Origin: a virus
Lineage: Duplodnaviria > Heunggongvirae > Uroviricota > Caudoviricetes
DNA length: 9,987 bases
Direction: 5' to 3' (one strand)
IMG/VR virus record: IMGVR_UViG_2751185961_000005
Location: 1 to 9,987 of that record
Below, piece by piece: positions 1 through 6,941 of this stretch. The notes under the pieces are model-generated. The model had not been told where the DNA came from. It made no database searches and saw nothing but the letters and a program-made list of their open reading frames with translations. Position 1 is the first letter of the stretch; each line of letters starts with the position of its first letter. Position numbers and translations under genes: made by a program.

Positions 1-520
1 AGCGATGGCGGTTATGGTTTGATTCGATTTCATCTACTGCTTCCTGCCCGATGCGGCTAATCAGTTCGACGCGATACGGAACGAGATTTCCGCTTTTGTG
101 CTGGTTGCACACCACGCATTGCTTGTGAATATTGCGTTCATCAAATCGGAGTTGAGGTGCCGCAGCAGTTGTCCGGTAATGTCCGGCATCCCACTGAGCA
201 GACGTGAGCGTTCCGCACGAGATACATGGTAAGTCGCGGTCTCTTTCTCTGATGAAGGCGTTTACGGCTTGTTGGGCTTGTTTAATCCAGTAACTGCGGG
301 GCTTTAAGGCGAGTTTTCGAATCTTCAGTTTATCTTTCTGTTTCTGCTCCTCTCGTCGTCGTTTCTTCTCTGCTGCTTTTTCCGCTTTTTCGCGTTCTTT
401 ACTTCGTCGTTCGAGTGCTAATTGAGTTCCGTGTTCCGGGCAGCACCACCACTGATTTGAGAATGCCGGGTGAAACCATTCTTTGCATATTTTGCATTTC
501 CTTCGCGCTGGTTTAGCCAT
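1..520 (-). CDS. ninG: NinG/Rap-like recombination protein, partial (C-terminus lies beyond the left window edge)
   Basis: Minus-strand translation from the ATG at 520-518 reads [172 protein letters not shown], near-colinear with lambda NinG as I recall it. Open to the window edge, so not in the supplied ORF track. Its ATG overlaps the upstream gene's stop (TAATG). Confidence 0.85.
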
Positions 521-1248
521 TAAGCAGCCTCCCCTGTTACTTTCAGCATTCCGTTATCGAGCAGCTTTCTGGTCAGCCACTGTTGACCACGCCCGGTGAT
601 TTTTGTGGTGAACGATATCTGTATTCCGTGATTTGTGTTGACCGCTGTTTCTTTCACTGTGAAATAGCCGCGATCCATATATTCCTGCATTGGCACATTG
701 CGCCGGGCACCTGAAGTAATAAGGATTTTGTGATCGCGCATCCACGCAAACAGTTTGTTTGGACCAATTCCAACAACCTTTGCATAGTTTCCAATCAAAA
801 TTCCGCTGGCCTCGCCAACGCGATCGGCAAACTCAACTTTAGGTGCTGCGAGAGCAAGCTGTTTCTCCAGTTCAGCCTTCTGGTCTTCAAGGTCGGCCGC
901 AAGGCGCAATGCCTCAGAAAAGGTTTGTGGTATTTTCGCGGTTGCCCCTTCGAGTTCTCGCCAACGGTCAACAAGACGAGCGGTGAATTCCGGCGACAAT
1001 TGGGCAACAACGACAATACTGTCTCGCTTACCTTGTTCGCCTTCGAAGACGTAATGCTCGTACTGAACATTGAACCCTAAGTTATTGATTCTTTCGGAAA
1101 CCTCAATTTGAGGAAGCCGGATAACACCATTTTTAGCCAGCGTTTCGATGGTACGTTTCACATTGTCATGACGCTTACCAACCAACTCAGCGATTTCAAT
1201 GCTTGTCATTTTAATGACGTTGCTATTTATCAGCTCGTTCATTGTCAT
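520..1248 (-). CDS. Phage antirepressor, Rha-family N-terminal domain plus KilAC/Ant C-terminal domain
   Basis: 242-aa ORF. N-terminus [22 protein letters not shown] matches the Rha motif (recalled from family members); the C-terminal half has the Ant/KilAC-like segment [33 protein letters not shown] upstream of ATG at 1248; stop overlaps the ninG start. Confidence 0.8.
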
Positions 1249-1272
1249 GTCCTCTCATATTGAAAATTCAGC

Positions 1273-1300
1273 AATAAAAAACCCAGCCGAAGCTGGGTTT
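1273..1300 (-). terminator. Rho-independent terminator (7-bp GC-rich stem ACCCAGC/GCTGGGT, CGAA loop, T-run on minus strand)
   Basis: Plus strand reads AAAAAACCCAGCCGAAGCTGGGTTT; on the minus strand the hairpin is followed by TTTTTTATTG. Sits between the ORF6N-type gene and the antirepressor gene. Confidence 0.6.
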
Positions 1301-1316
1301 GTTAAGTTGTCAATTG

Positions 1317-2030
1317 TCAGTAACGATGCAGTGAAGGCGGCAACTCTTTGTTCTTAAGCCTTTCCCATGCCAGAAGGTTCGTCGGCCCGTCAGGCTCATA
1401 AATATCTATATCCCGCGTGTGATTAATTAAAACGCCCCTCGCCCTCCCGATGGTATACGAGAACTCATAGCCGTAGTCGTGGCATATGCCGGAATAGCCA
1501 GACTGAATCAGTTTTAATGCGGGATACAACTCACGGAACAATGCCTGTGAGCGGTTGGCATAATCCCACAGCCATACAAGGCTGTCTGTTTCTTTTGCGG
1601 AAAGCCCGTTGAGCTTCTTCTCTTGTTTGCCAGTATTTTTCTCGCACTGGCTGAAATAGCAGTCTTCCAGTTTTTCGAACACTTCCCACGCCTGATCAGT
1701 TTCGAGCATTTTTGCGTGACGGGCTGCGCCTCGTTCTGTCCAGAGGATGAGGGAGCGAACATTGCGGGCGATTTTCACAGAGTAACTTTCTGTTACCTCG
1801 CGGCTAACAGACTCGCTTAAAGATAGTCTGTGCTTGAACTCACGTAGTTCATTCCCTTCCAACTTAAAGAAATGTTTTCCCTGTACAAATCGCGCAGAGT
1901 TACGGGAAAAATTCATTTTTATATTGACTGTTTCAGTGCCATACAATTGCGCCAATAATTCTGTAGTAATTACGGGGATCTGGTTGTAGGCAATTGGGGA
2001 AAGAGTTTCAACGGAAATTTGAGTCGCCAT
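1317..2030 (-). CDS. ORF6N/KilA-N-like domain protein (N-terminal about 90 aa); C-terminal about 140 aa unassigned
   Basis: 237-aa ORF with RBS GAGGG 8 nt upstream of ATG at 2030. N-terminal segment [41 protein letters not shown] resembles the ORF6N pattern (LA.LYGV.T..LN..V.RN..RFP.DFMF.L) as I recall it. The C-terminal half has no motif I recognise. Confidence 0.55.
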
Positions 2031-2051
2031 GACAACGCCCTCTGGTTGATG

Positions 2052-2080
2052 AATTTAACTATCACCACCGTCAGGTGCAA
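2052..2080 (-). promoter_or_regulatory. Candidate sigma70 promoter for the ORF6N-type gene (-35 TTGCAC, 17-bp spacer, -10 TAAATT on minus strand)
   Basis: Minus-strand sequence TTGCAC-N17-TAAATT lies immediately downstream of a terminator and about 20 nt upstream of the RBS and ATG at 2030. Confidence 0.4.
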
Positions 2081-2190
2081 ATCTTTGGGTGGTGAGACGT
2101 ACAGGGTTTGCACTACCGGATCAACCAACCGGCGAGCCTTTCGGCTCCCCCATACGCCCCACCATAATTCAGATGTGCGTGTGCTTACGA

Positions 2191-2216
2191 CAACAAAAAA
2201 CACGCTCGCGGCGTGT
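2191..2216 (-). terminator. Rho-independent terminator (stem ACACGC/GCGTGT, 5-nt loop, T6 run on minus strand)
   Basis: Plus strand reads CAACAAAAAACACGCTCGCGGCGTGT; on the minus strand the hairpin is followed by TTTTTTGTTG. Lies downstream of ninE. Confidence 0.5.
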
Positions 2217-2308
2217 GTCTGTCGCGGTTGAATATCCGGGGTGCAAATCCCGACGCCAGATTTTGCTGGCGCGTGAGGAATATAGCCCCGAATAAATCAT
2301 CACGTCAA

Positions 2309-2491
2309 TCACCTTGTATTCCTCGCACGATGTCTTAGCCACCGGATATCCCACAGGTGAGCCGTGTAATTGAAGGTTTTAACGTCAGATTCTTTTGGGA
2401 TTGGCCTGGGTTTATTTCTGGAACGTTTCGTTGGAAGGTAATTGCAGTTTTCACAGATTATGTCGGTGAAACTTCGTCGCTGTCGCCTCAT
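2309..2491 (-). CDS. ninE: NinE protein
   Basis: Translation [60 protein letters not shown] is near-identical to lambda NinE as recalled. ATG at 2491 overlaps the stop of the upstream ORF (ATGA). An in-frame ATG at 2509 would extend it by 6 codons. Confidence 0.8.
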
Positions 2492-3090
2492 GCCACCCTG
2501 TCTCCCCATCTTGCTTTCATTGTTTCATTTGCAAATCGCCAGAATCTTCCTTTGTGATATGAGCTTTCGCCATTACAGCAACGACTAATTGACGAACTAT
2601 CAAATCCTTCTCTGACAGCATCCATAGCTGCTTCATAATAAACCTCCTCCCCAGTTTTCATGTCAGTAGAAATAACAGCTTTACTGGCAGGATGATCACC
2701 ACTAAATTTACCTAGCGATATAGGTATTCTTCCATTTTGTTTATATCCGTGCTTTGAGTTTTCAGAATGTGATACCCATTCAAGGTTTTCAGCCCTATTG
2801 TCATCTCTTTGCCCATTTTTGTGATTAACTACCAAGCCATCACAGAACCCTGTACAGAATGCTTTCGCAACTATCCTGTGGGCGCTGTATTTCTTACCGT
2901 ATACCTTTATTTGAAGATATCCTGTCGACTTGCACTTGAATGGTTTTACGCTAGTGCCATTAATTATTTTCTTATATGGCCTCTGTCTGGTTGATGTTAC
3001 TGTAATTTCCCTCGTAATAGACCTGAAATTTCCTTTATTGCTAACCTGATAAAATGGAATTCCTTCGATATCTACCCAAACCTCAATCAT
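2488..3090 (-). CDS. NUMOD4-motif HNH homing endonuclease, C-terminus fused in frame to the last about 9 codons of a lambda-like ninB
   Basis: 200-aa ORF with RBS GGAGG before ATG at 3090. N-terminal [17 protein letters not shown] is NUMOD4-like; HNH core reads [23 protein letters not shown]. The C-terminal tail [11 protein letters not shown] matches the lambda NinB C-terminus (EWKARWGDRAA, recalled). AT-rich relative to flanking genes. Confidence 0.75.
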
Positions 3091-3980
3091 AATTCCTCCA
3101 TTCGCTAAGATTAATTGAGTTCATGGCACAATATGCTTCTATGTAGTCCATTATTTCGGATATTTTTTTTACAGATAGAGTCGCCGTACTCTCTCTGATG
3201 TTTATTAGCTCACCTTCTAACCCTGATATAATCTCAGGGTGCTGGTTGGTTGCAATCTGCCAACCAGAAACGAATAACCCCTTCCAAAACTCAATATTTC
3301 TTGCTTTTCCATGATATGTAGCCTTCTTACTTATTTCAGATAGCATCGCGTGAAGGCGTGCATTTTGCCGAATGCTGCGGTTGCGCTGCTTAAACTCGAC
3401 AATGATGTCTAAATCGCATGTCCTAAGATACTGAATGGCGTTATATCTTATAGATTCATTAGTAAGGTGATATTTGACACATTTCATTTTAATACCTCGC
3501 AAATTCGCCGAAACATTCATCCGCTTTATTTGCATATACTTTATGAGCTTCCTTTGGGTCATCGTAAAACCCAAGATTAACTTTCCTCTTGTTGATTACG
3601 ATTTGCGCCCTCCATTTTCTTGATTTCTTATCCCATGAAACGCCTTTATATCCTGATTTGTTATTTGCCTTTTTGTTTACGTTTTGGATGTTTTGAGATC
3701 GAGTTGCCAATCTAAGATTTGCTATACGATTGTCATCCCTAACGAGATTTATGTGGTCGATATCACTTTTTGGTAGACTGCCATTCATATAGAGCCACGC
3801 CAGCCTGTGTGCCTTATAAAGTTTTCCATCGACTTTTATTACCCAGTAGCCTTCGCTACTCTTATGCCCTGCGATATCCCCAGCATTCATTCTCTGGCAT
3901 TTCTTTACTTTCCATGTGAATTTCCCTGTTAACTCATCGTAGAGAAGAACTTCTTTAAGTCTCTGCTGAGTTATTTGATT
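2524..3980 (-). mobile_element. Homing-endonuclease cassette (HNH-AP2 gene, divergent ninB, NUMOD4-HNH gene) embedded between the 5' and 3' remnants of a lambda-like ninB
   Basis: Visibly AT-rich block bounded by in-frame junctions with lambda-like ninB codons on both sides. Two unrelated HNH families bracket a second, divergent ninB allele. Boundaries are approximate. Confidence 0.5.
3083..3487 (-). CDS. ninB: NinB/Orf-family recombination protein, divergent allele lacking the canonical last about 12 residues
   Basis: Starts at ATG 3487 (RBS GCGAGG 8 nt upstream), not the track's upstream Met. Protein MKCVKYHLTNESIRYNAIQYLRTCDLDIIVEFKQRNRSIRQNARLHAMLSE... aligns along its length with lambda NinB (MKKLTFEIRSPAHQQNAIHAVQQILPDPTKPIVVTIQERNRSLDQNRKLWA..., recalled). 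Ends SEWRNYD* where lambda continues ARLALEWKARWGDRAA. Confidence 0.7.
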   Translation of the reverse strand: MKCVKYHLTNESIRYNAIQYLRTCDLDIIVEFKQRNRSIRQNARLHAMLSEISKKATYHGKARNIEFWKGLFVSGWQIATNQHPEIISGLEGELINIRESTATLSVKKISEIMDYIEAYCAMNSINLSEWRNYD

Positions 3981-4076
3981 GATTGGTTTGGTTGGGTCTG
4001 GAAGAATTTGCTGGATAGCTTGAATGGCGTTCTGCTGATGGATGGGGCTTCTTAGTTCAAATGTTAGTTTCCTCAT
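3489..4076 (-). CDS. HNH endonuclease with C-terminal AP2-type DNA-binding domain, N-terminus fused in frame to the first about 32 codons of a lambda-like ninB
   Basis: Start taken at ATG 4076 (M28 of the track ORF; RBS-like GAGAGGA upstream). First 32 aa MRKLTFELRSPIHQQNAIQAIQQILPDPTKPI are about 27/32 identical to the lambda NinB N-terminus. They are followed by the HNH motif DIDHINLVRDDNRIANLRLATRSQN and an AP2-like segment SGYKGVSWDKKSRKWRAQIVINKRKVNLGFYDDPKEAHKVYANKA. Confidence 0.75.
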   Translation of the reverse strand: MRKLTFELRSPIHQQNAIQAIQQILPDPTKPINQITQQRLKEVLLYDELTGKFTWKVKKCQRMNAGDIAGHKSSEGYWVIKVDGKLYKAHRLAWLYMNGSLPKSDIDHINLVRDDNRIANLRLATRSQNIQNVNKKANNKSGYKGVSWDKKSRKWRAQIVINKRKVNLGFYDDPKEAHKVYANKADECFGEFARY

Positions 4077-4239
4077 CACCCTTAATCCTCTCGAAGTTCT
4101 TCTCGAAGTTTTTGGTGTCGAACACTGACCACCGACCATTATGAATGGCGTATGCACAGGTCTTGTTTTCGTCCTGATAAACTACCCTTACCTTGCGATA
4201 AAACCGTGGCTTAATCTCTCTGAATATTTGCTCGCTCAT
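4057..4239 (-). CDS. Hypothetical small protein (60 aa)
   Basis: RBS AAGGAG 5-6 nt upstream of ATG at 4239. Protein MSEQIFREIKPRFYRKVRVVYQDENKTCAYAIHNGRWSVFDTKNFEKNFERIKGDEETNI. The 3' end overlaps the ninB-type start by about 20 nt. No recognisable motif. Confidence 0.5.
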   Translation of the reverse strand: MSEQIFREIKPRFYRKVRVVYQDENKTCAYAIHNGRWSVFDTKNFEKNFERIKGDEETNI

Positions 4240-4249
4240 GCTCACTCCT

Positions 4250-4465
4250 TCACTTTAAATCCAGACTCCGGATAATTCTGTTGCGCTGAAACTCATTGTT
4301 GAGTTTGAACAACCGTCGAAGAACACGGTCACGCGGATAGCGTCGTGCGGCAGGTGAATGCTCATACAACTCATCAAGCGGCAAACTGGACGATGAACGA
4401 TACCGATACCAACGCACCAACTCTTCACGAAAATTAGCCCTGACAAGCTCAGCTATCGTACTCAT
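4250..4465 (-). CDS. Hypothetical small arginine-rich protein (71 aa)
   Basis: RBS GAGGAGG about 9 nt upstream of ATG at 4465; tightly packed against the next gene. Very basic (many Arg), suggesting nucleic-acid binding. No recognisable motif. Confidence 0.55.
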   Translation of the reverse strand: MSTIAELVRANFREELVRWYRYRSSSSLPLDELYEHSPAARRYPRDRVLRRLFKLNNEFQRNRIIRSLDLK

Positions 4466-4597
4466 TTCTTAAAACCTCCTCAAACGCATTCTGACGCATT
4501 TTTCATTCTCGCTGCTTATTGGCATGCCTTGCACGCGTTTACCTCGCTACAGAGCGATTGTGATGCCTTAAAAGCGATTTATTGAAGTGATATTTGC

Positions 4598-4876
4598 TTA
4601 ATCGAAATTCTTTTCTTTGATTCCTGCGGCCCTGATGGCTTTCATTACTGCAATTACCGTTTTGTCACGCCCATCCTCATAACCCATCGCATAAGCACCT
4701 TCTTCACCATCTTTCCAAAAGTCGTCATTCGATTCGGGCCAGTCGATATCCAGTTCAATAGCAGAGCGCGATGCCTGCCATATCACCCAGGCAAACTCTT
4801 TTAATTCATCGTCTCCCGTGAACTGGCTTTTGTCTTTTGACCACCAGTTTTCAAACTGTCGGTAGCTATCGTTCAC
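4598..4876 (-). CDS. Hypothetical small acidic Trp-rich protein (about 92 aa, GTG start)
   Basis: The track ORF begins at a TTG inside the terminator T-run. An in-frame GTG at 4876 is preceded by GGGGGAGAGGG (RBS). By eye about 21 Asp+Glu against about 12 Lys+Arg, and 6 Trp. Confidence 0.5.
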   Translation of the reverse strand: MNDSYRQFENWWSKDKSQFTGDDELKEFAWVIWQASRSAIELDIDWPESNDDFWKDGEEGAYAMGYEDGRDKTVIAVMKAIRAAGIKEKNFD

Positions 4877-4889
4877 TTCCCTCTCCCCC

Positions 4890-4921
4890 AAATAAAAAGG
4901 CCTGCGATTACCAGCAGGCCT
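4890..4921 (-). terminator. Rho-independent terminator, tR2-like position (8-bp stem AGGCCTGC/GCAGGCCT, 8-nt loop, T-run on minus strand)
   Basis: On the minus strand the hairpin is followed by TTTTTATTTG. Lies between the primase-helicase stop (4951) and the first small nin-proximal ORF. Confidence 0.55.
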
Positions 4922-4950
4922 GCTATCAGCTCAGTGATGTAGATGGTCAT

Positions 4951-6831
4951 TTAATACTCCGTCACGTTTTCCTGTCTCCACGCCTCGTCATATTCCGATT
5001 TCGGCATATTGGCGATGTAGCTATATGGAGATCCTGATTCAAGTTGCAGGAACTGGTGCGATTGCTCGTCAAGGAACAACGGGATACCACCTTCCCAACC
5101 TTCACCGTTACGTTGTTTTTCAAGCAACAAAACAGATGCCGGAGACACCAGTAGCTGTTCGTCCTTCTCTGACATCTGTTCACCGCTTTGAACTCTCTGT
5201 AACGCTCTCTCGCGAGCCTTGTTACGCCAGATGATAAAAAGGTTGTCTGTCAGGTCTGTTATCGCTCCAGAGCCTTTTACGTCCATTTTCCCGGTTGGTT
5301 TTTCTTCGCTGTCTCCTTTTCGCGAGTGAGTAACGAGAATGACGTGGGAGTTTGTTTTGTTTTTGAAGTCGCAAATCGAGTCAACAAACGCCTTCTGCCC
5401 GTTATAGTCATCGTCGCCTATGCCACATTTCATCAGGCTGTCGATGATGAATAACTGGATACCGTATCGGCGGCGAGCGTAGTCGAATATTTCGATCAGC
5501 CTGTCGGCTTTCGCCGTTCCGGTCAGGCCAAACACCCAAAGTCTTTCGTCATAAAATTTAAATGCAGAGTCAATTTCCAGCACTGGCGGCATCTTGCAGC
5601 ACGTCGCCTGACGGGTAAGGCGCTTAAGGAGAATACCAGGCTTCAGCTCAAGTGACGCGATGCACGTCTTCACACCCTGACGCATTGCCTCAAGTGCCAT
5701 ATGCCCGACAACCTCCGTTTTTCCGTGACCGTTCACACCATTGACCAGCGTCAACTCGGCCTCACGGAACTGGAATTTATCTGCCAGAGATTCCCACGGT
5801 GGATTAAACAGATACTGCTGCTTGCCGTAGAAAGCGTTGATAGTGTCCTGGTAAAACTCTCGCGCGCTGTAGAGTTCTTCAGGATCGAAGTAGGATGCCG
5901 TGCCGATGTACTGCCAGATTTCATCCTCGGTAACACCGTTCATCAGGCATTCGTTGATGTCTTTGTACGGCAGAGTAACAAGACGGCAACGATGTTCACC
6001 GAGTCGGCTTGCGATTTCCCTTGCGGCTTCACGACCAACATCATCAACATCCATCGAGATGAATATTTCCTCAAACCTGTCGAGGTTGTGATACTCAAAC
6101 TCAATCCACTGCTGCTTAGCGCCTTTCCCGCCACCAAACGGCACGGATAACGCCGAGATGCCGTATTGCGCATAGCTCATACAATCAATTTCGCCTTCGC
6201 AAAGTACAACCGCCCTCACGCCAGCGTCCAGAGCCTGCCATCCGAACAGACAAGGTTCGCAATCACCTTCTGCCATAATGACTTTCTTCCCGTCCGGGCG
6301 CTCAGTGCTGATTCGCTTGACCTGCAACAACTCACCATCGCGTTTGTACGGAAGCACCAGAGCATCCAGTTCCCGCTCTCCATTCCACACCTTGCCGCTG
6401 ACAACCTCGTAGCGCTTTACGACTTCTGGCGATATGCCACGCGATTGCAGGTACTCAAGATGGGATTCTGTTCTGGTAACGTAACTGGCGATTTTCTTGC
6501 GATCAGGTCTGGAGAATTTCTTCTCACGTCTGGCATCGAAATGGTGATCGTCATCCTTGATACCGAGAAATGCTTTCGCTTCCTGCATAGCCTGATGCAG
6601 GTTAATTCCACGACATGCCATCCACAAATCAAGCATGTCACCGCCGTCTCCCTCAGCGAAATCAGCCCATTTTTTCTTGCCGCTAAGGTTGACCTTAAGG
6701 CTGTTTCCCTTGTCACCGTTAACGTTACCGGCAACCCACTCATGCCCCTCTTTCTTGCCGTTTGGCAACAGGTGCGGAGCCACCCTGTCAACCTGCGCCC
6801 AAAGCAGGTCGCTCAGTTCACTTGGAGTCAT
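4951..6831 (-). CDS. Bifunctional DNA primase/helicase (Toprim domain plus DnaB-like/SF4 RecA-fold helicase)
   Basis: 626-aa ORF. Toprim-like acidic motif VVLCEGEIDCMS; Walker A GVNGHGKT; Walker B-like LFIIDSLMK. Position matches the lambda P slot downstream of the initiator. Confidence 0.85.
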   Translation of the reverse strand: MTPSELSDLLWAQVDRVAPHLLPNGKKEGHEWVAGNVNGDKGNSLKVNLSGKKKWADFAEGDGGDMLDLWMACRGINLHQAMQEAKAFLGIKDDDHHFDARREKKFSRPDRKKIASYVTRTESHLEYLQSRGISPEVVKRYEVVSGKVWNGERELDALVLPYKRDGELLQVKRISTERPDGKKVIMAEGDCEPCLFGWQALDAGVRAVVLCEGEIDCMSYAQYGISALSVPFGGGKGAKQQWIEFEYHNLDRFEEIFISMDVDDVGREAAREIASRLGEHRCRLVTLPYKDINECLMNGVTEDEIWQYIGTASYFDPEELYSAREFYQDTINAFYGKQQYLFNPPWESLADKFQFREAELTLVNGVNGHGKTEVVGHMALEAMRQGVKTCIASLELKPGILLKRLTRQATCCKMPPVLEIDSAFKFYDERLWVFGLTGTAKADRLIEIFDYARRRYGIQLFIIDSLMKCGIGDDDYNGQKAFVDSICDFKNKTNSHVILVTHSRKGDSEEKPTGKMDVKGSGAITDLTDNLFIIWRNKARERALQRVQSGEQMSEKDEQLLVSPASVLLLEKQRNGEGWEGGIPLFLDEQSHQFLQLESGSPYSYIANMPKSEYDEAWRQENVTEY

Positions 6832-6938
6832 TACGCTGACCTCAGATCGAGACGGTTAAACCAGAACTCAACGAATGCAGAACTAAGCCAGCCATGGTTA
6901 TAGCCAGCGATAAGTAACGATTTGATTCTGGATTTCAT
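6831..6938 (-). CDS. Candidate 35-codon micro-ORF between initiator and primase-helicase
   Basis: ATG at 6938 lies 3 nt after the initiator stop, with AGGTGA just upstream. Translation MKSRIKSLLIAGYNHGWLSSAFVEFWFNRLDLRSA. Its TAA overlaps the primase-helicase ATG (TAATG). Below the track size cut-off. Confidence 0.3.
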   Translation of the reverse strand: MKSRIKSLLIAGYNHGWLSSAFVEFWFNRLDLRSA

Positions 6939-6941
6939 GGT

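Follow-up and report, generated by a model that had tools for sequence, protein, structure and literature searches.

Three small, independently exchangeable genes between the tR2-like terminator and the ninB region of a Shiga-toxin-type lambdoid prophage

The stretch between a tR2-like terminator and ninB in a lambdoid prophage raises the question of what three small genes do there and whether they take the place of ren. The window, by which we mean the whole stretch of 9,987 nt that was analysed (IMG/VR record IMGVR_UViG_2751185961_000005, positions 1 to 9,987), had received an initial annotation made from its letters alone. The three ORFs were there assigned to a ren-equivalent slot, and the acidic one was suggested to be a DNA mimic or an anti-restriction factor. 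The locus contains the following features, in the direction of transcription.

4873..4950, minus strand: 'ninA' mini-ORF of 25 codons, MTIYITELIAGLLVIAGLFIWGRGK, which contains the terminator and is annotated ninA in phage Nil2
4888..4921, minus strand: predicted tR2-like intrinsic terminator, hairpin AGGCCTGC-TGGTAATC-GCAGGCCT and then TTTTATTT
4598-4876, minus strand: ORF1, GTG start, 92 aa, acidic and Trp-rich; PF26207 (Phage_phiTE_015) / PHROG 343
4253..4614, minus strand: putative inserted module of 362 nt, deduced from the junction alignment, with the ORF1 tail EKNFD-stop, the spacer and ORF2
4466..4597, minus strand: non-coding spacer of 132 nt upstream of ORF2
4250-4465, minus strand: ORF2, ATG start, 71 aa, Arg-rich and all-helical; PF23975 (DUF7301) / PHROG 1785
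4235..4256, minus strand: conserved cassette junction AAAGTGAAGGAGTGAGCATGAG, which supplies the stop codon of the gene before it and the RBS AAGGAG and start ATG of the cassette after it
4057-4239, minus strand: ORF3, ATG start, 60 aa; PHROG 9493

All three ORFs were on the minus strand, downstream of the tR2-like terminator, and family profiles and conserved frames bore out the original call of three small ORFs. They are real protein-coding genes that form the left edge of the nin region in a lambdoid prophage of the Stx-phage type. They are also already catalogued, ordinary genes of Shiga-toxin-type lambdoid phages, since over 100 sequenced phages of the Stx and lambdoid kinds have unnamed genes 97-100% identical to them, and homologues down to 46-60% identity retained the reading frames. 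We have high confidence in their identity and architecture as described here. The composition that had been counted by eye for ORF1 was reproduced exactly by computation (21 Asp+Glu, 12 Lys+Arg and 6 Trp in 92 aa), and translation agreed with an Arg-rich protein of 71 aa for ORF2 and a protein of 60 aa for ORF3. The description of the genes as tightly packed was right for ORF2 and ORF3, which are 10 nt apart, but not for ORF1 and ORF2, which are separated by 132 nt. Likewise, the genes do lead into the ninB region, but the next ORF, which ORF3 overlaps by 20 nt as in P27, is a chimera in which the first 32 codons of a ninB are followed by an HNH_3+AP2 endonuclease. A reconstituted ninB was found at 3083-3574, beyond the HNH_3+AP2 ORF.

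The GTG start of ORF1 is preceded by GGGGAGAGGGAA, and an alternative TTG start five codons upstream would give a protein of 97 aa. ORF2 has the RBS GAGGAGG ending 8 nt upstream of its ATG, and ORF3 has AAGGAG ending 5 nt upstream; a GTG at 4245 would extend ORF3 to 62 aa but leave no room for an RBS. When close relatives were searched for frameshifts and stop codons, ORF1 was intact in 75/85 loci (dN/dS about 0.17), ORF2 in 73/73 (dN/dS about 0.10) and ORF3 in 10/10, its close alleles differing by synonymous changes only (dN/dS 0); all three ratios rest on few substitutions. The 10 loci with a non-intact ORF1 comprised one with a nonsense codon, two with 1-nt deletions and seven with 3'-end variants, of which two read through the stop and five had a 1-nt insertion near the 3' end.

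The assignment to a ren-equivalent slot did not stand. In P27, Lys19259Vzw and 933W, genes of the ORF1-3 block come after a ren that is intact, and 47 of 80 related IMG/VR loci have ren ahead of ORF1. The block begins at the ninA/tR2 element and does so after four kinds of replication gene, namely lambda P, a DnaB-like gene, a primase-helicase gene and, in Hafnia, an IstB/DnaA-like gene. Thus, it marks the left edge of the nin region and not the position of ren. Lambda ren, like ORF1-3, is small, delayed-early and distal to the replication genes, but it lies upstream of tR2/ninA, whereas ORF1-3 lie downstream, and many phages have both. The statement that none of the proteins matches Ren was confirmed for the two that were compared, as the ORF1 and ORF2 profiles gave hhalign probabilities of 0.3% and 0.06% against P27 Ren, and neither is homologous to it. 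The replication module of the window is a primase-helicase module without ren, and ORF1-3 begin where ren would end, which would fit a function as Ren replacements that guard against Rex-type exclusion where ren is missing. However, with ren intact beside the same genes in the named phages and in more than half of the related loci, and with the dissimilarity of ORF1 and ORF2 to Ren, such a replacement is hardly credible.

The terminator scan placed the hairpin at 4921..4898, with an 8-bp stem that includes 6 GC pairs, followed by TTTTATTT. A GC-rich hairpin and a T-run on the transcribed strand, located between the replication and nin genes, are what defines a tR2-type element, and the identical element carries the annotation 'tR2 terminator' in phage Nil2. 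The 'ninA' mini-ORF around it starts with an ATG directly after the primase-helicase stop (TAAATG) and ends with a TGA that overlaps the GTG of ORF1 (GTGA). It was kept in the loci L001-L007 and L009 and was truncated in L008, which retained the hairpin and the T-run despite the loss of the 5' half of the mini-ORF. Thus, the RNA hairpin and not the peptide appears to be constrained. A sigma-70-like scan of the coding (minus) strand detected no promoter-like site at 3900-5100, and no terminator was detected after ORF2 or ORF3 in the terminator scan. The 132-nt spacer had no sigma-70-like promoter on the minus strand and no Rfam match, and its RNA folding was not better than that of shuffled sequence (z = -0.25). 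The lack of a promoter-like site and the position downstream of the tR2-like terminator suggest delayed-early transcription of ORF1-3 from pR, which would occur only when N antitermination permits read-through.

ORF1, with a pI of 4.40 and a net charge of -9.5, corresponds to L0091 of 933W and ORF29 of Nil2. These two proteins and WP_001000127 are 97-99% identical to ORF1, and proteins at this level of identity carry a precomputed assignment to PF26207. An ORF1-relative profile matched the founding member of the family, phiTE_015, with an hhalign probability of 99.6% (E 2e-23), and ORF1 matched PHROG 343 at E 5e-29. An exhaustive profile search gave 457 family clusters at 50% identity, and the family shares with ORF1 its place after the replication genes. 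Its members have a conserved frame around two variable segments. ORF1 has this frame (MDESRKQFEEW ... aWxAWQASRAAIE ... AIRAAGIK), and its second variable segment is the subfamily-specific acidic and Trp-rich LDIDWPESNDDFWKDGEEGAYAMGYEDGRDK. The C-terminus of ORF1 is EKNFD instead of the canonical VKE because of the DUF7301 insertion, and otherwise there is no difference of substance. The conservation of the ORF1 termini may in part reflect recombination linkers and RBS sequences and not protein function. The AF2 model of ORF1 (pLDDT 65 overall) has helices at residues 3-16, 23-38 and 67-83 and a low-confidence loop at about 40-66, with a pLDDT of 45-53 in the acidic Trp-rich segment. A Pfam and NCBIfam scan of 56 members of the ORF1 family gave no match, and no informative fused domain was found in the longer members. 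The model and the family alignment suggest a three-helix scaffold with two hypervariable segments that may bind a variable target; a counter-defence role for it is conceivable but rather doubtful.

ORF2 matched PF23975 at 91.5 bits (cut-off 27), with residues 1-64 on profile positions 1-64 of 65, and PHROG 1785 at E 2e-33. This is a full-length match without differences, and the RefSeq homologues are named 'DUF7301 family protein'. The protein has 16 Lys+Arg and a pI of 10.8, and its family has the invariant motif YPRDRVLRR, followed by L in 14 of 15 alignment rows. Helices were modelled by AF2 at residues 4-25, 30-41 and 44-69 (pLDDT 75). The ORF2 profile also matched P22 Cro (E 2e-7), but this was an artefact of the alignment row P0114, in which a deletion in a shortened prophage has fused cro to DUF7301, and the match was gone once this row was removed. 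ORF2 is tentatively a basic helical protein for which binding to nucleic acid or to an acidic partner is the most likely activity. The module at 4253-4614 interrupts the canonical 3' end of the PF26207 gene between GGAATCAAAG and TGAAGGAGTGAG and is flanked by an AAAG repeat, and the uninterrupted 3' junction was present in 32 of 80 diverse family loci and in S137. From this comparison we infer that the usual 3' end of the PF26207 gene probably received an insertion of 362 nt, on which ORF2 is carried.

The exchange of genes across the block was followed in two separate sets of loci, 80 related IMG/VR loci for the counts of ren, lar and positions, and 80 diverse PF26207 loci for the counts of junctions and next genes. 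In the related loci, position 1 held ORF1, a 68-aa protein with two TM segments, or both, and position 2 held ORF2 or nothing. The ORF3 position held lar, a gene for restriction alleviation, in about 60/80, ORF3 in 6/80 and nothing in the others. In the diverse loci, the PF26207 gene was followed by at least 17 kinds of gene via one conserved junction, and the genes behind this string of about 22 nt are unrelated to one another; they encode, among others, small membrane proteins, zinc-ribbon proteins, Lar and an S137-orf70-like product. Each of the three genes was missing from otherwise similar phages, and the nonsense codon or frameshift in ORF1 in 3 of the 85 close relatives points to dispensability. 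ORF1-3 are therefore independently exchangeable, dispensable cassettes, and neither a three-part system nor substitutes for ren.

The cassette site of ORF3 is bounded by conserved linkers and lies immediately 5' of ninB. The Lar/Ral family (PF14354, Lar_restr_allev) and ORF3 use the same site, after DUF7301 and overlapping the start of ninB, with the same 5' linker and RBS, and they are of similar size (56-78 aa for Lar and 60 aa for ORF3). In contrast, they have no sequence similarity (hhalign probability 0.1%). PF14354 matched the Lar of 95NR1 (E 2e-10) and phiTE_014 (E 2e-11) but not ORF3, and Lar has a CxxC...CxxC zinc ribbon, whereas ORF3, a protein with a pI of 8.9, has one Cys. The resemblance between ORF3 and Lar is positional only. 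Smith et al. 2012 (PMC3430580) touch on lar in Stx phages no more than briefly. With ORF3 linked to a single ninB allele in 25 of 27 loci, hitch-hiking could explain why it stands at the lar site. Since lar occupies exactly its place in most relatives, we tentatively regard ORF3 as the best candidate for a counter-defence gene among the three.

Lar also recurs next to PF26207 genes, in Stx phages, in five diverse IMG/VR loci and in the virulent Pectobacterium phage phiTE. In this unrelated phage, the family founder phiTE_015 overlaps a Lar-domain gene (PF14354, E 2e-11). Lar followed the PF26207 gene in 5/80 diverse loci, a count made without a control for chance adjacency and with an HMM of the zinc-ribbon core for which most of these five loci had served as seeds. 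A local Lar HMM built by iteration had taken up the shared tail that overlaps ninB (GDEANIPASQRSNQK); it over-called Lar and was discarded. The low count makes the association of PF26207 with Lar recurrent but weak.

Scans of ORF1-3 against Pfam, PHROGs, NCBIfam and PADLOC returned only families without assigned function, or nothing; NCBIfam gave no match. Neither single-sequence nor profile searches of PDB sequences gave a real hit. Thus, no homology of ORF1-3 to a characterised housekeeping protein was found in Pfam, PHROGs, NCBIfam or PDB sequences, in line with the view first taken of them. The HMM search against PADLOC, whose models represent defence and not anti-defence proteins, gave no match for ORF1-3 at E <= 0.1. 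A literature search on the genes and their families found no paper. What survived of the broader anti-restriction idea is contextual, namely the position of ORF3 at the lar site and the overlap of phiTE_015 with Lar, whereas the libraries, structures and literature searched gave no match. A counter-defence role of ORF1-3 is thus supported by their context and not directly.

The more specific idea that ORF1 is a DNA mimic of the Ocr/ArdA type, with an acidic surface that would resemble the DNA backbone and draw off type I restriction enzymes or other defence proteins that bind DNA, fared less well. Such mimics are generally known as small, acidic, early proteins, and so is ORF1, which is encoded two genes from the lar slot. 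In addition, the founder of its family adjoins a Lar-like gene, and PF26207 members are mostly acidic, with a median pI of 5.06. However, the charge density of ORF1 is about -0.10 per residue, and that of classic mimics such as Ocr is well above this. The median net charge of the family is only -4.3, and 12% of the members are basic. The acidic Trp-rich stretch is peculiar to the subfamily and occupies a variable loop that was modelled poorly and not as a rigid surface, and ORF1 resembled no solved structure in sequence or fold, the best Foldseek match of its model in the PDB having an E of 8. A DNA mimic is accordingly an improbable reading of ORF1. ORF1-3 could instead be accessory factors of the replication or recombination machinery that modulate, for example, NinB/Orf, SSB or helicase loading. 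The location of PF26207 genes between replication genes and ninB, or a substitute for it, in prophages of E. coli, Salmonella and Hafnia would agree with this, as would the 20-nt overlap of ORF3 with the start of ninB, its linkage to one ninB allele and the basic nature of ORF2, which could bind DNA. But lambdoid genes that follow the replication genes necessarily adjoin ninB, so the synteny alone says little. The genes were also found with four unrelated kinds of replication gene, the next gene was not ninB in L096 (DUF1367), L094 (a 140-aa protein) and phiTE (Lar), and each gene was missing from otherwise similar functional phages. Accessory factors are thus unlikely, if somewhat less so than a DNA mimic.

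Two further readings concern expression in the prophage and the coding status of the ORFs. Lysogenic-conversion genes ('morons') expressed from the prophage for the host, for example in phage exclusion or the regulation of virulence, would be consistent with the ORF2 block, which resembles an insertion with its own 132-nt leader, and with the neighbouring alternative cassettes, which include small membrane proteins typical of exclusion functions. Against this, the coding strand had no promoter-like site at 3900-5100 and no terminator after ORF2 or ORF3, and genes within the pR operon and beyond a terminator would be expected to stay silent in the repressed prophage, which makes morons quite improbable. 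ORF3 would be the likeliest of the three to be a chance ORF in linker DNA because its family is tiny, with only 6 clusters among 5.8 billion proteins and none found in a genome scan of GTDB species-representative genomes, and shared linker sequence makes up its first and last codons. But homologues at 66-80% identity kept the reading frame and 32 invariant residues, and two of them (L122 and L123) lie in different neighbourhoods of their genomes. The protein matched PHROG 9493 at E 2.8e-47 (residues 3-62 on profile positions 1-60 of 60), its RBS is good and properly spaced, and its close alleles differ only by synonymous changes. That any of the ORFs arose by chance is therefore very improbable.

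The reading that we prefer, with a probability of roughly 0.5, combines the cassette architecture with delayed-early small binders that most probably neutralise host defence or exclusion. ORF1-3 would be small, non-enzymatic binding proteins that act early in the lytic cycle and adapt the phage to particular hosts, and their targets would most probably be host defence or exclusion functions. A stronger form of this proposal, which we consider unlikely though worth stating, is that lambdoid phages use the short interval from tR2 to ninB as a cassette site for counter-defence genes and that ORF3, and perhaps PF26207, are new inhibitor families that replace or complement Lar. The GIKVKE-stop-RBS-ATG junction and the ninB-overlapping tail would then let small anti-defence genes swap.

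As it stands, the locus is ordinary, with near-identical copies of the three genes in over 100 of the sequenced Stx and other lambdoid phages and with Pfam entries for two of them. The value of ORF1-3 lies in their being candidates, as early genes of medically important phages. If any of them inhibits host defence, it would represent a new inhibitor family, and the tR2-ninB junction would be a site to search for further such genes.

The three small minus-strand genes ORF1, ORF2 and ORF3 (4057-4876) belong to a lambdoid prophage and stand in its early-right region, which reads on the minus strand and is laid out as follows.

8623-9270, plus strand: cI
8296-8553, minus strand: cro
7860-8156, minus strand: cII
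6942-7697, minus strand: O-like initiator
4951-6831, minus strand: Toprim/DnaB-type primase-helicase
4873-4950, minus strand: hydrophobic ninA mini-ORF of 25 codons, MTIYITELIAGLLVIAGLFIWGRGK, so annotated in phage Nil2
4921..4888, minus strand: terminator-like hairpin and T-run wholly inside the ninA mini-ORF, annotated as the tR2 terminator in Nil2
4598-4876, minus strand: ORF1, GTG start, 92 aa, pI 4.4
4253-4614, minus strand: inferred 362-nt insertion (ORF1 tail EKNFD*, 132-nt spacer, DUF7301) with an AAAG repeat at its flanks
4250-4465, minus strand: ORF2, 71 aa, pI 10.8
4235-4256, minus strand: conserved junction AAAGTGAAGGAGTGAG(C/T)ATGAG, also found in 32 of the related loci L125-L204 and in L004
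4057-4239, minus strand: ORF3, 60 aa, pI 8.9
3489-4076, minus strand: HNH_3+AP2 endonuclease ORF within ninB, ATG at 4076
3083-3574, minus strand: NinB ORF after this endonuclease, with a different N-terminus (MKCVKYHL...)

A Shine-Dalgarno sequence precedes each of the three genes, in agreement with the initial annotation, and its residue counts for ORF1 (21 D+E, 12 K+R and 6 W in 92 aa) were exact when computed. The genes are not tightly packed throughout, as it had described them, since 132 nt separate ORF1 from ORF2. It had also placed them between a tR2-like terminator and ninB; the terminator is indeed upstream, but the next gene is the HNH_3+AP2 endonuclease ORF and not ninB itself. The ninA mini-ORF starts with TAAATG directly after the primase-helicase stop and ends with a GTGA that overlaps the ORF1 start. 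It is kept in eight relatives, but the ninA peptide may be incidental, judging from the sequence, because the related locus L008 lacks the 5′ half of the mini-ORF and still has the hairpin.

The HNH_3+AP2 ORF opens with the first 32 codons of P27-type NinB (MRKLTFELRSPIHQQNAIQAIQQILPDPTKPI) and continues as an endonuclease, and from residue 56 on the window NinB is 94% identical to residues 31-138 of the phage P27 NinB. This looks like a homing-endonuclease insertion carrying a replacement 5′ end for its host gene. A second endonuclease gene (NUMOD4 and HNH_3, 200 aa, 2488-3090, minus strand) directly follows ninB with an 8-nt overlap, as in P27, where a Dam methylase gene comes next; the ORF list of the window has no ORF of such size there. 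Farther along, the Rfam RNAs isrK (2195-2272, 76 bits) and C4 antisense RNA (2085-2169, 74 bits) stand in tandem on the minus strand upstream of a 237-aa ORF (1317-2030) that is antirepressor-like by position only, an arrangement that presumably resembles RNA-based regulation of ant as in P1/P7.

ORF1, ORF2 and ORF3 are dispensable genes, and they are real and conserved, because they have full-length matches to profile families, diverged homologues and intact frames in close relatives; together these argue against the possibility that they are non-genes. The full-length PHROG matches were 343 (E 5e-29), 1785 (2e-33) and 9493 (3e-47), respectively, and ORF2 scored 91.5 bits against Pfam DUF7301 (PF23975; cut-off 27). 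ORF1 homologues with identities down to 46-60% are carried by Escherichia, Shigella, Salmonella, Hafnia and Obesumbacterium, and the matches of an exhaustive profile search fall into 457 clusters (50% identity), which consist almost entirely of stand-alone proteins of 75-135 aa. The motif YPRDRVLRR is invariant among ORF2 homologues, whose identity goes down to 57%, and ORF3 has only six clusters, yet 32 residues are invariant at 66-80% identity. Loss of the frames in close relatives had been named beforehand as a possible refutation, but the frames largely held: ORF1 was intact in 75/85 loci, ORF2 in 73/73 and ORF3 in 10/10. The ten exceptions for ORF1 were one nonsense codon, two 1-nt deletions and seven 3′-end variants (two with stop readthrough, five with a 1-nt insertion close to the 3′ end). 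The dN/dS ratios were roughly 0.17, 0.10 and 0, with few substitutions behind each. A Cro match of the DUF7301 profile was false and was caused by L091, a prophage remnant lacking cII through ORF1, in which a 68-aa chimera (1344-1550) joins a P22-Cro/YdaS-type N-terminus to the C-terminal 27 residues of DUF7301.

All three belong to previously catalogued families of unknown function and offer little novelty. ORF1 homologues carry Pfam PF26207 (Phage_phiTE_015), RefSeq lists WP_001000127 as 'phiTE_015 family protein' and ORF2 as 'DUF7301 family protein', and 933W L0091 and Nil2 ORF29 are the ORF1 counterparts. By tblastn against 50,697 phage records, ORF1, ORF2 and ORF3 were found in 133, 183 and 62 records, almost without exception Stx-converting phages with 95-100% identity. 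Literature searches found no paper dealing with any of the three.

The genes had been assigned to a ren-equivalent slot, which proved wrong. P27, Lys19259Vzw and 933W have O, P and ren first, then [ninA/tR2], and after it ORF1, ORF2, another small gene and ninB. When the neighbours of ORF1 in 80 IMG/VR loci were classed by tblastn, the preceding gene was ren in 47 and a DnaB-like helicase or primase-helicase in the rest; distant PF26207 members in Hafnia are preceded by lambda-P-type or IstB/DnaA-type replication genes. Therefore, the block is part of the nin region, at its left end 3′ of tR2, and occurs together with ren. The initial annotation was right that ORF1 and ORF2 do not resemble Ren (profile probabilities of 0.3% or less), and this, with the frequent presence of ren itself, disfavours the idea that the genes substitute for Ren. 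Beside the region, the replication genes of two relatives are enlarged and may contain putative inteins: the DnaB-like helicase has 797 aa in the Stx2a phage Stx2_6804 (L090 435-2828) compared to 456-458 aa in Nil2 and L122, and the toprim primase-helicase gene has 2907 nt in strain 95NR1 (L007 3486-6392) compared to 1881 nt in the window.

The genes are organised as exchangeable, independent cassettes, and in the 80 classed loci the three positions assort freely.

Position 1: ORF1, or a two-TM protein of 68 aa, or both
Position 2: DUF7301 or empty
Position 3: Lar (restriction alleviation, PF14354) in about 60/80 loci, ORF3 in 6/80, or empty

The 68-aa protein (MAELIFSALRILGAMWMVATFIVVV...; L090 3167-3373, L099, L100 and others), for which two membrane helices are predicted and which had no match in a Pfam search, replaces or precedes ORF1 in many Stx2a phages. 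One ninB allele is shared by 25 of the 27 ORF3 loci, and two diverged copies of ORF3 sit in other neighbourhoods. Across 80 diverse PF26207 loci there were at least 17 kinds of next gene, including an acidic protein like orf70 of S137, Lar zinc ribbons, other zinc ribbons and small membrane proteins. A single conserved string, GGAATCAAAG followed by TGAAGGAGTGAG(C/T)ATGAG, which encodes the C-terminus GIKVKE*, an RBS and the ATG of the following cassette, connects PF26207 genes to these unrelated cassettes. In the window the string stands after ORF2 while ORF1 ends in GGAATCAAAG followed by AAAAGAATTTCGATTAA, and 4253-4614 thus appears to have been inserted into the 3′ end that is canonical for PF26207 genes, changing VKE* to EKNFD*. 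The cassettes also have C-terminal tails in common (GDEETNI, GEETNV and ANIPASQRSNQK) because they overlap the ninB start. On sequence grounds, the junction and the tails look like recombination linkers on either side of a hypervariable slot.

The initial annotation had proposed that ORF1 could be a DNA mimic, which our analysis did not support. An AlphaFold2 model (25 sequences, mean pLDDT 65) showed a helical hairpin at residues 3-38 (pLDDT about 80), a C-terminal helix at 67-83 and a low-confidence loop at about 40-66, and matched no fold in the PDB. The conserved parts of the family are MDESRKQFEEW, aWxAWQASRAAIE and AIRAAGIK, separated by two segments that differ in length and sequence, and the acidic Trp-rich stretch of ORF1 is the form that a single subfamily has of the second. 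The medians for the family (pI 5.06, net charge -4.3) are mildly acidic, and basic proteins make up 12% of it. DNA mimicry is disfavoured on these grounds. The ORF2 model has three helices (pLDDT 75).

The accompanying anti-restriction idea retained only a positional hint, which is the sole piece of functional context for these genes: Lar usually occupies the position of ORF3 and, in five diverse loci, stands immediately after a PF26207 gene. In phiTE, a virulent phage of Pectobacterium, the founding member of the family, phiTE_015 (hhalign probability 99.6% to the ORF1 family), overlaps phiTE_014, a Lar-domain protein (E 2e-11 to PF14354). ORF3 itself has no similarity to Lar. Because the genes lie behind the tR2-like terminator and no promoter-like site of their own was found on the coding strand, they are predicted to be delayed-early, with transcription from pR that depends on prior antitermination by N; a rival reading would make them morons expressed from the prophage, and another would make them accessories of NinB or of replication. 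We favour small binding proteins that would fit the phage to certain hosts, most probably because they counteract defence or exclusion. Gene by gene, we put this role at a probability of about 0.3 for ORF3, and it is somewhat less likely for ORF1; nucleic-acid binding by ORF2 is about as likely as this role is for ORF3. What is most useful here is that ORF3, in the lar slot, is a concrete candidate, and that a defined cassette junction offers a place to seek more such genes.
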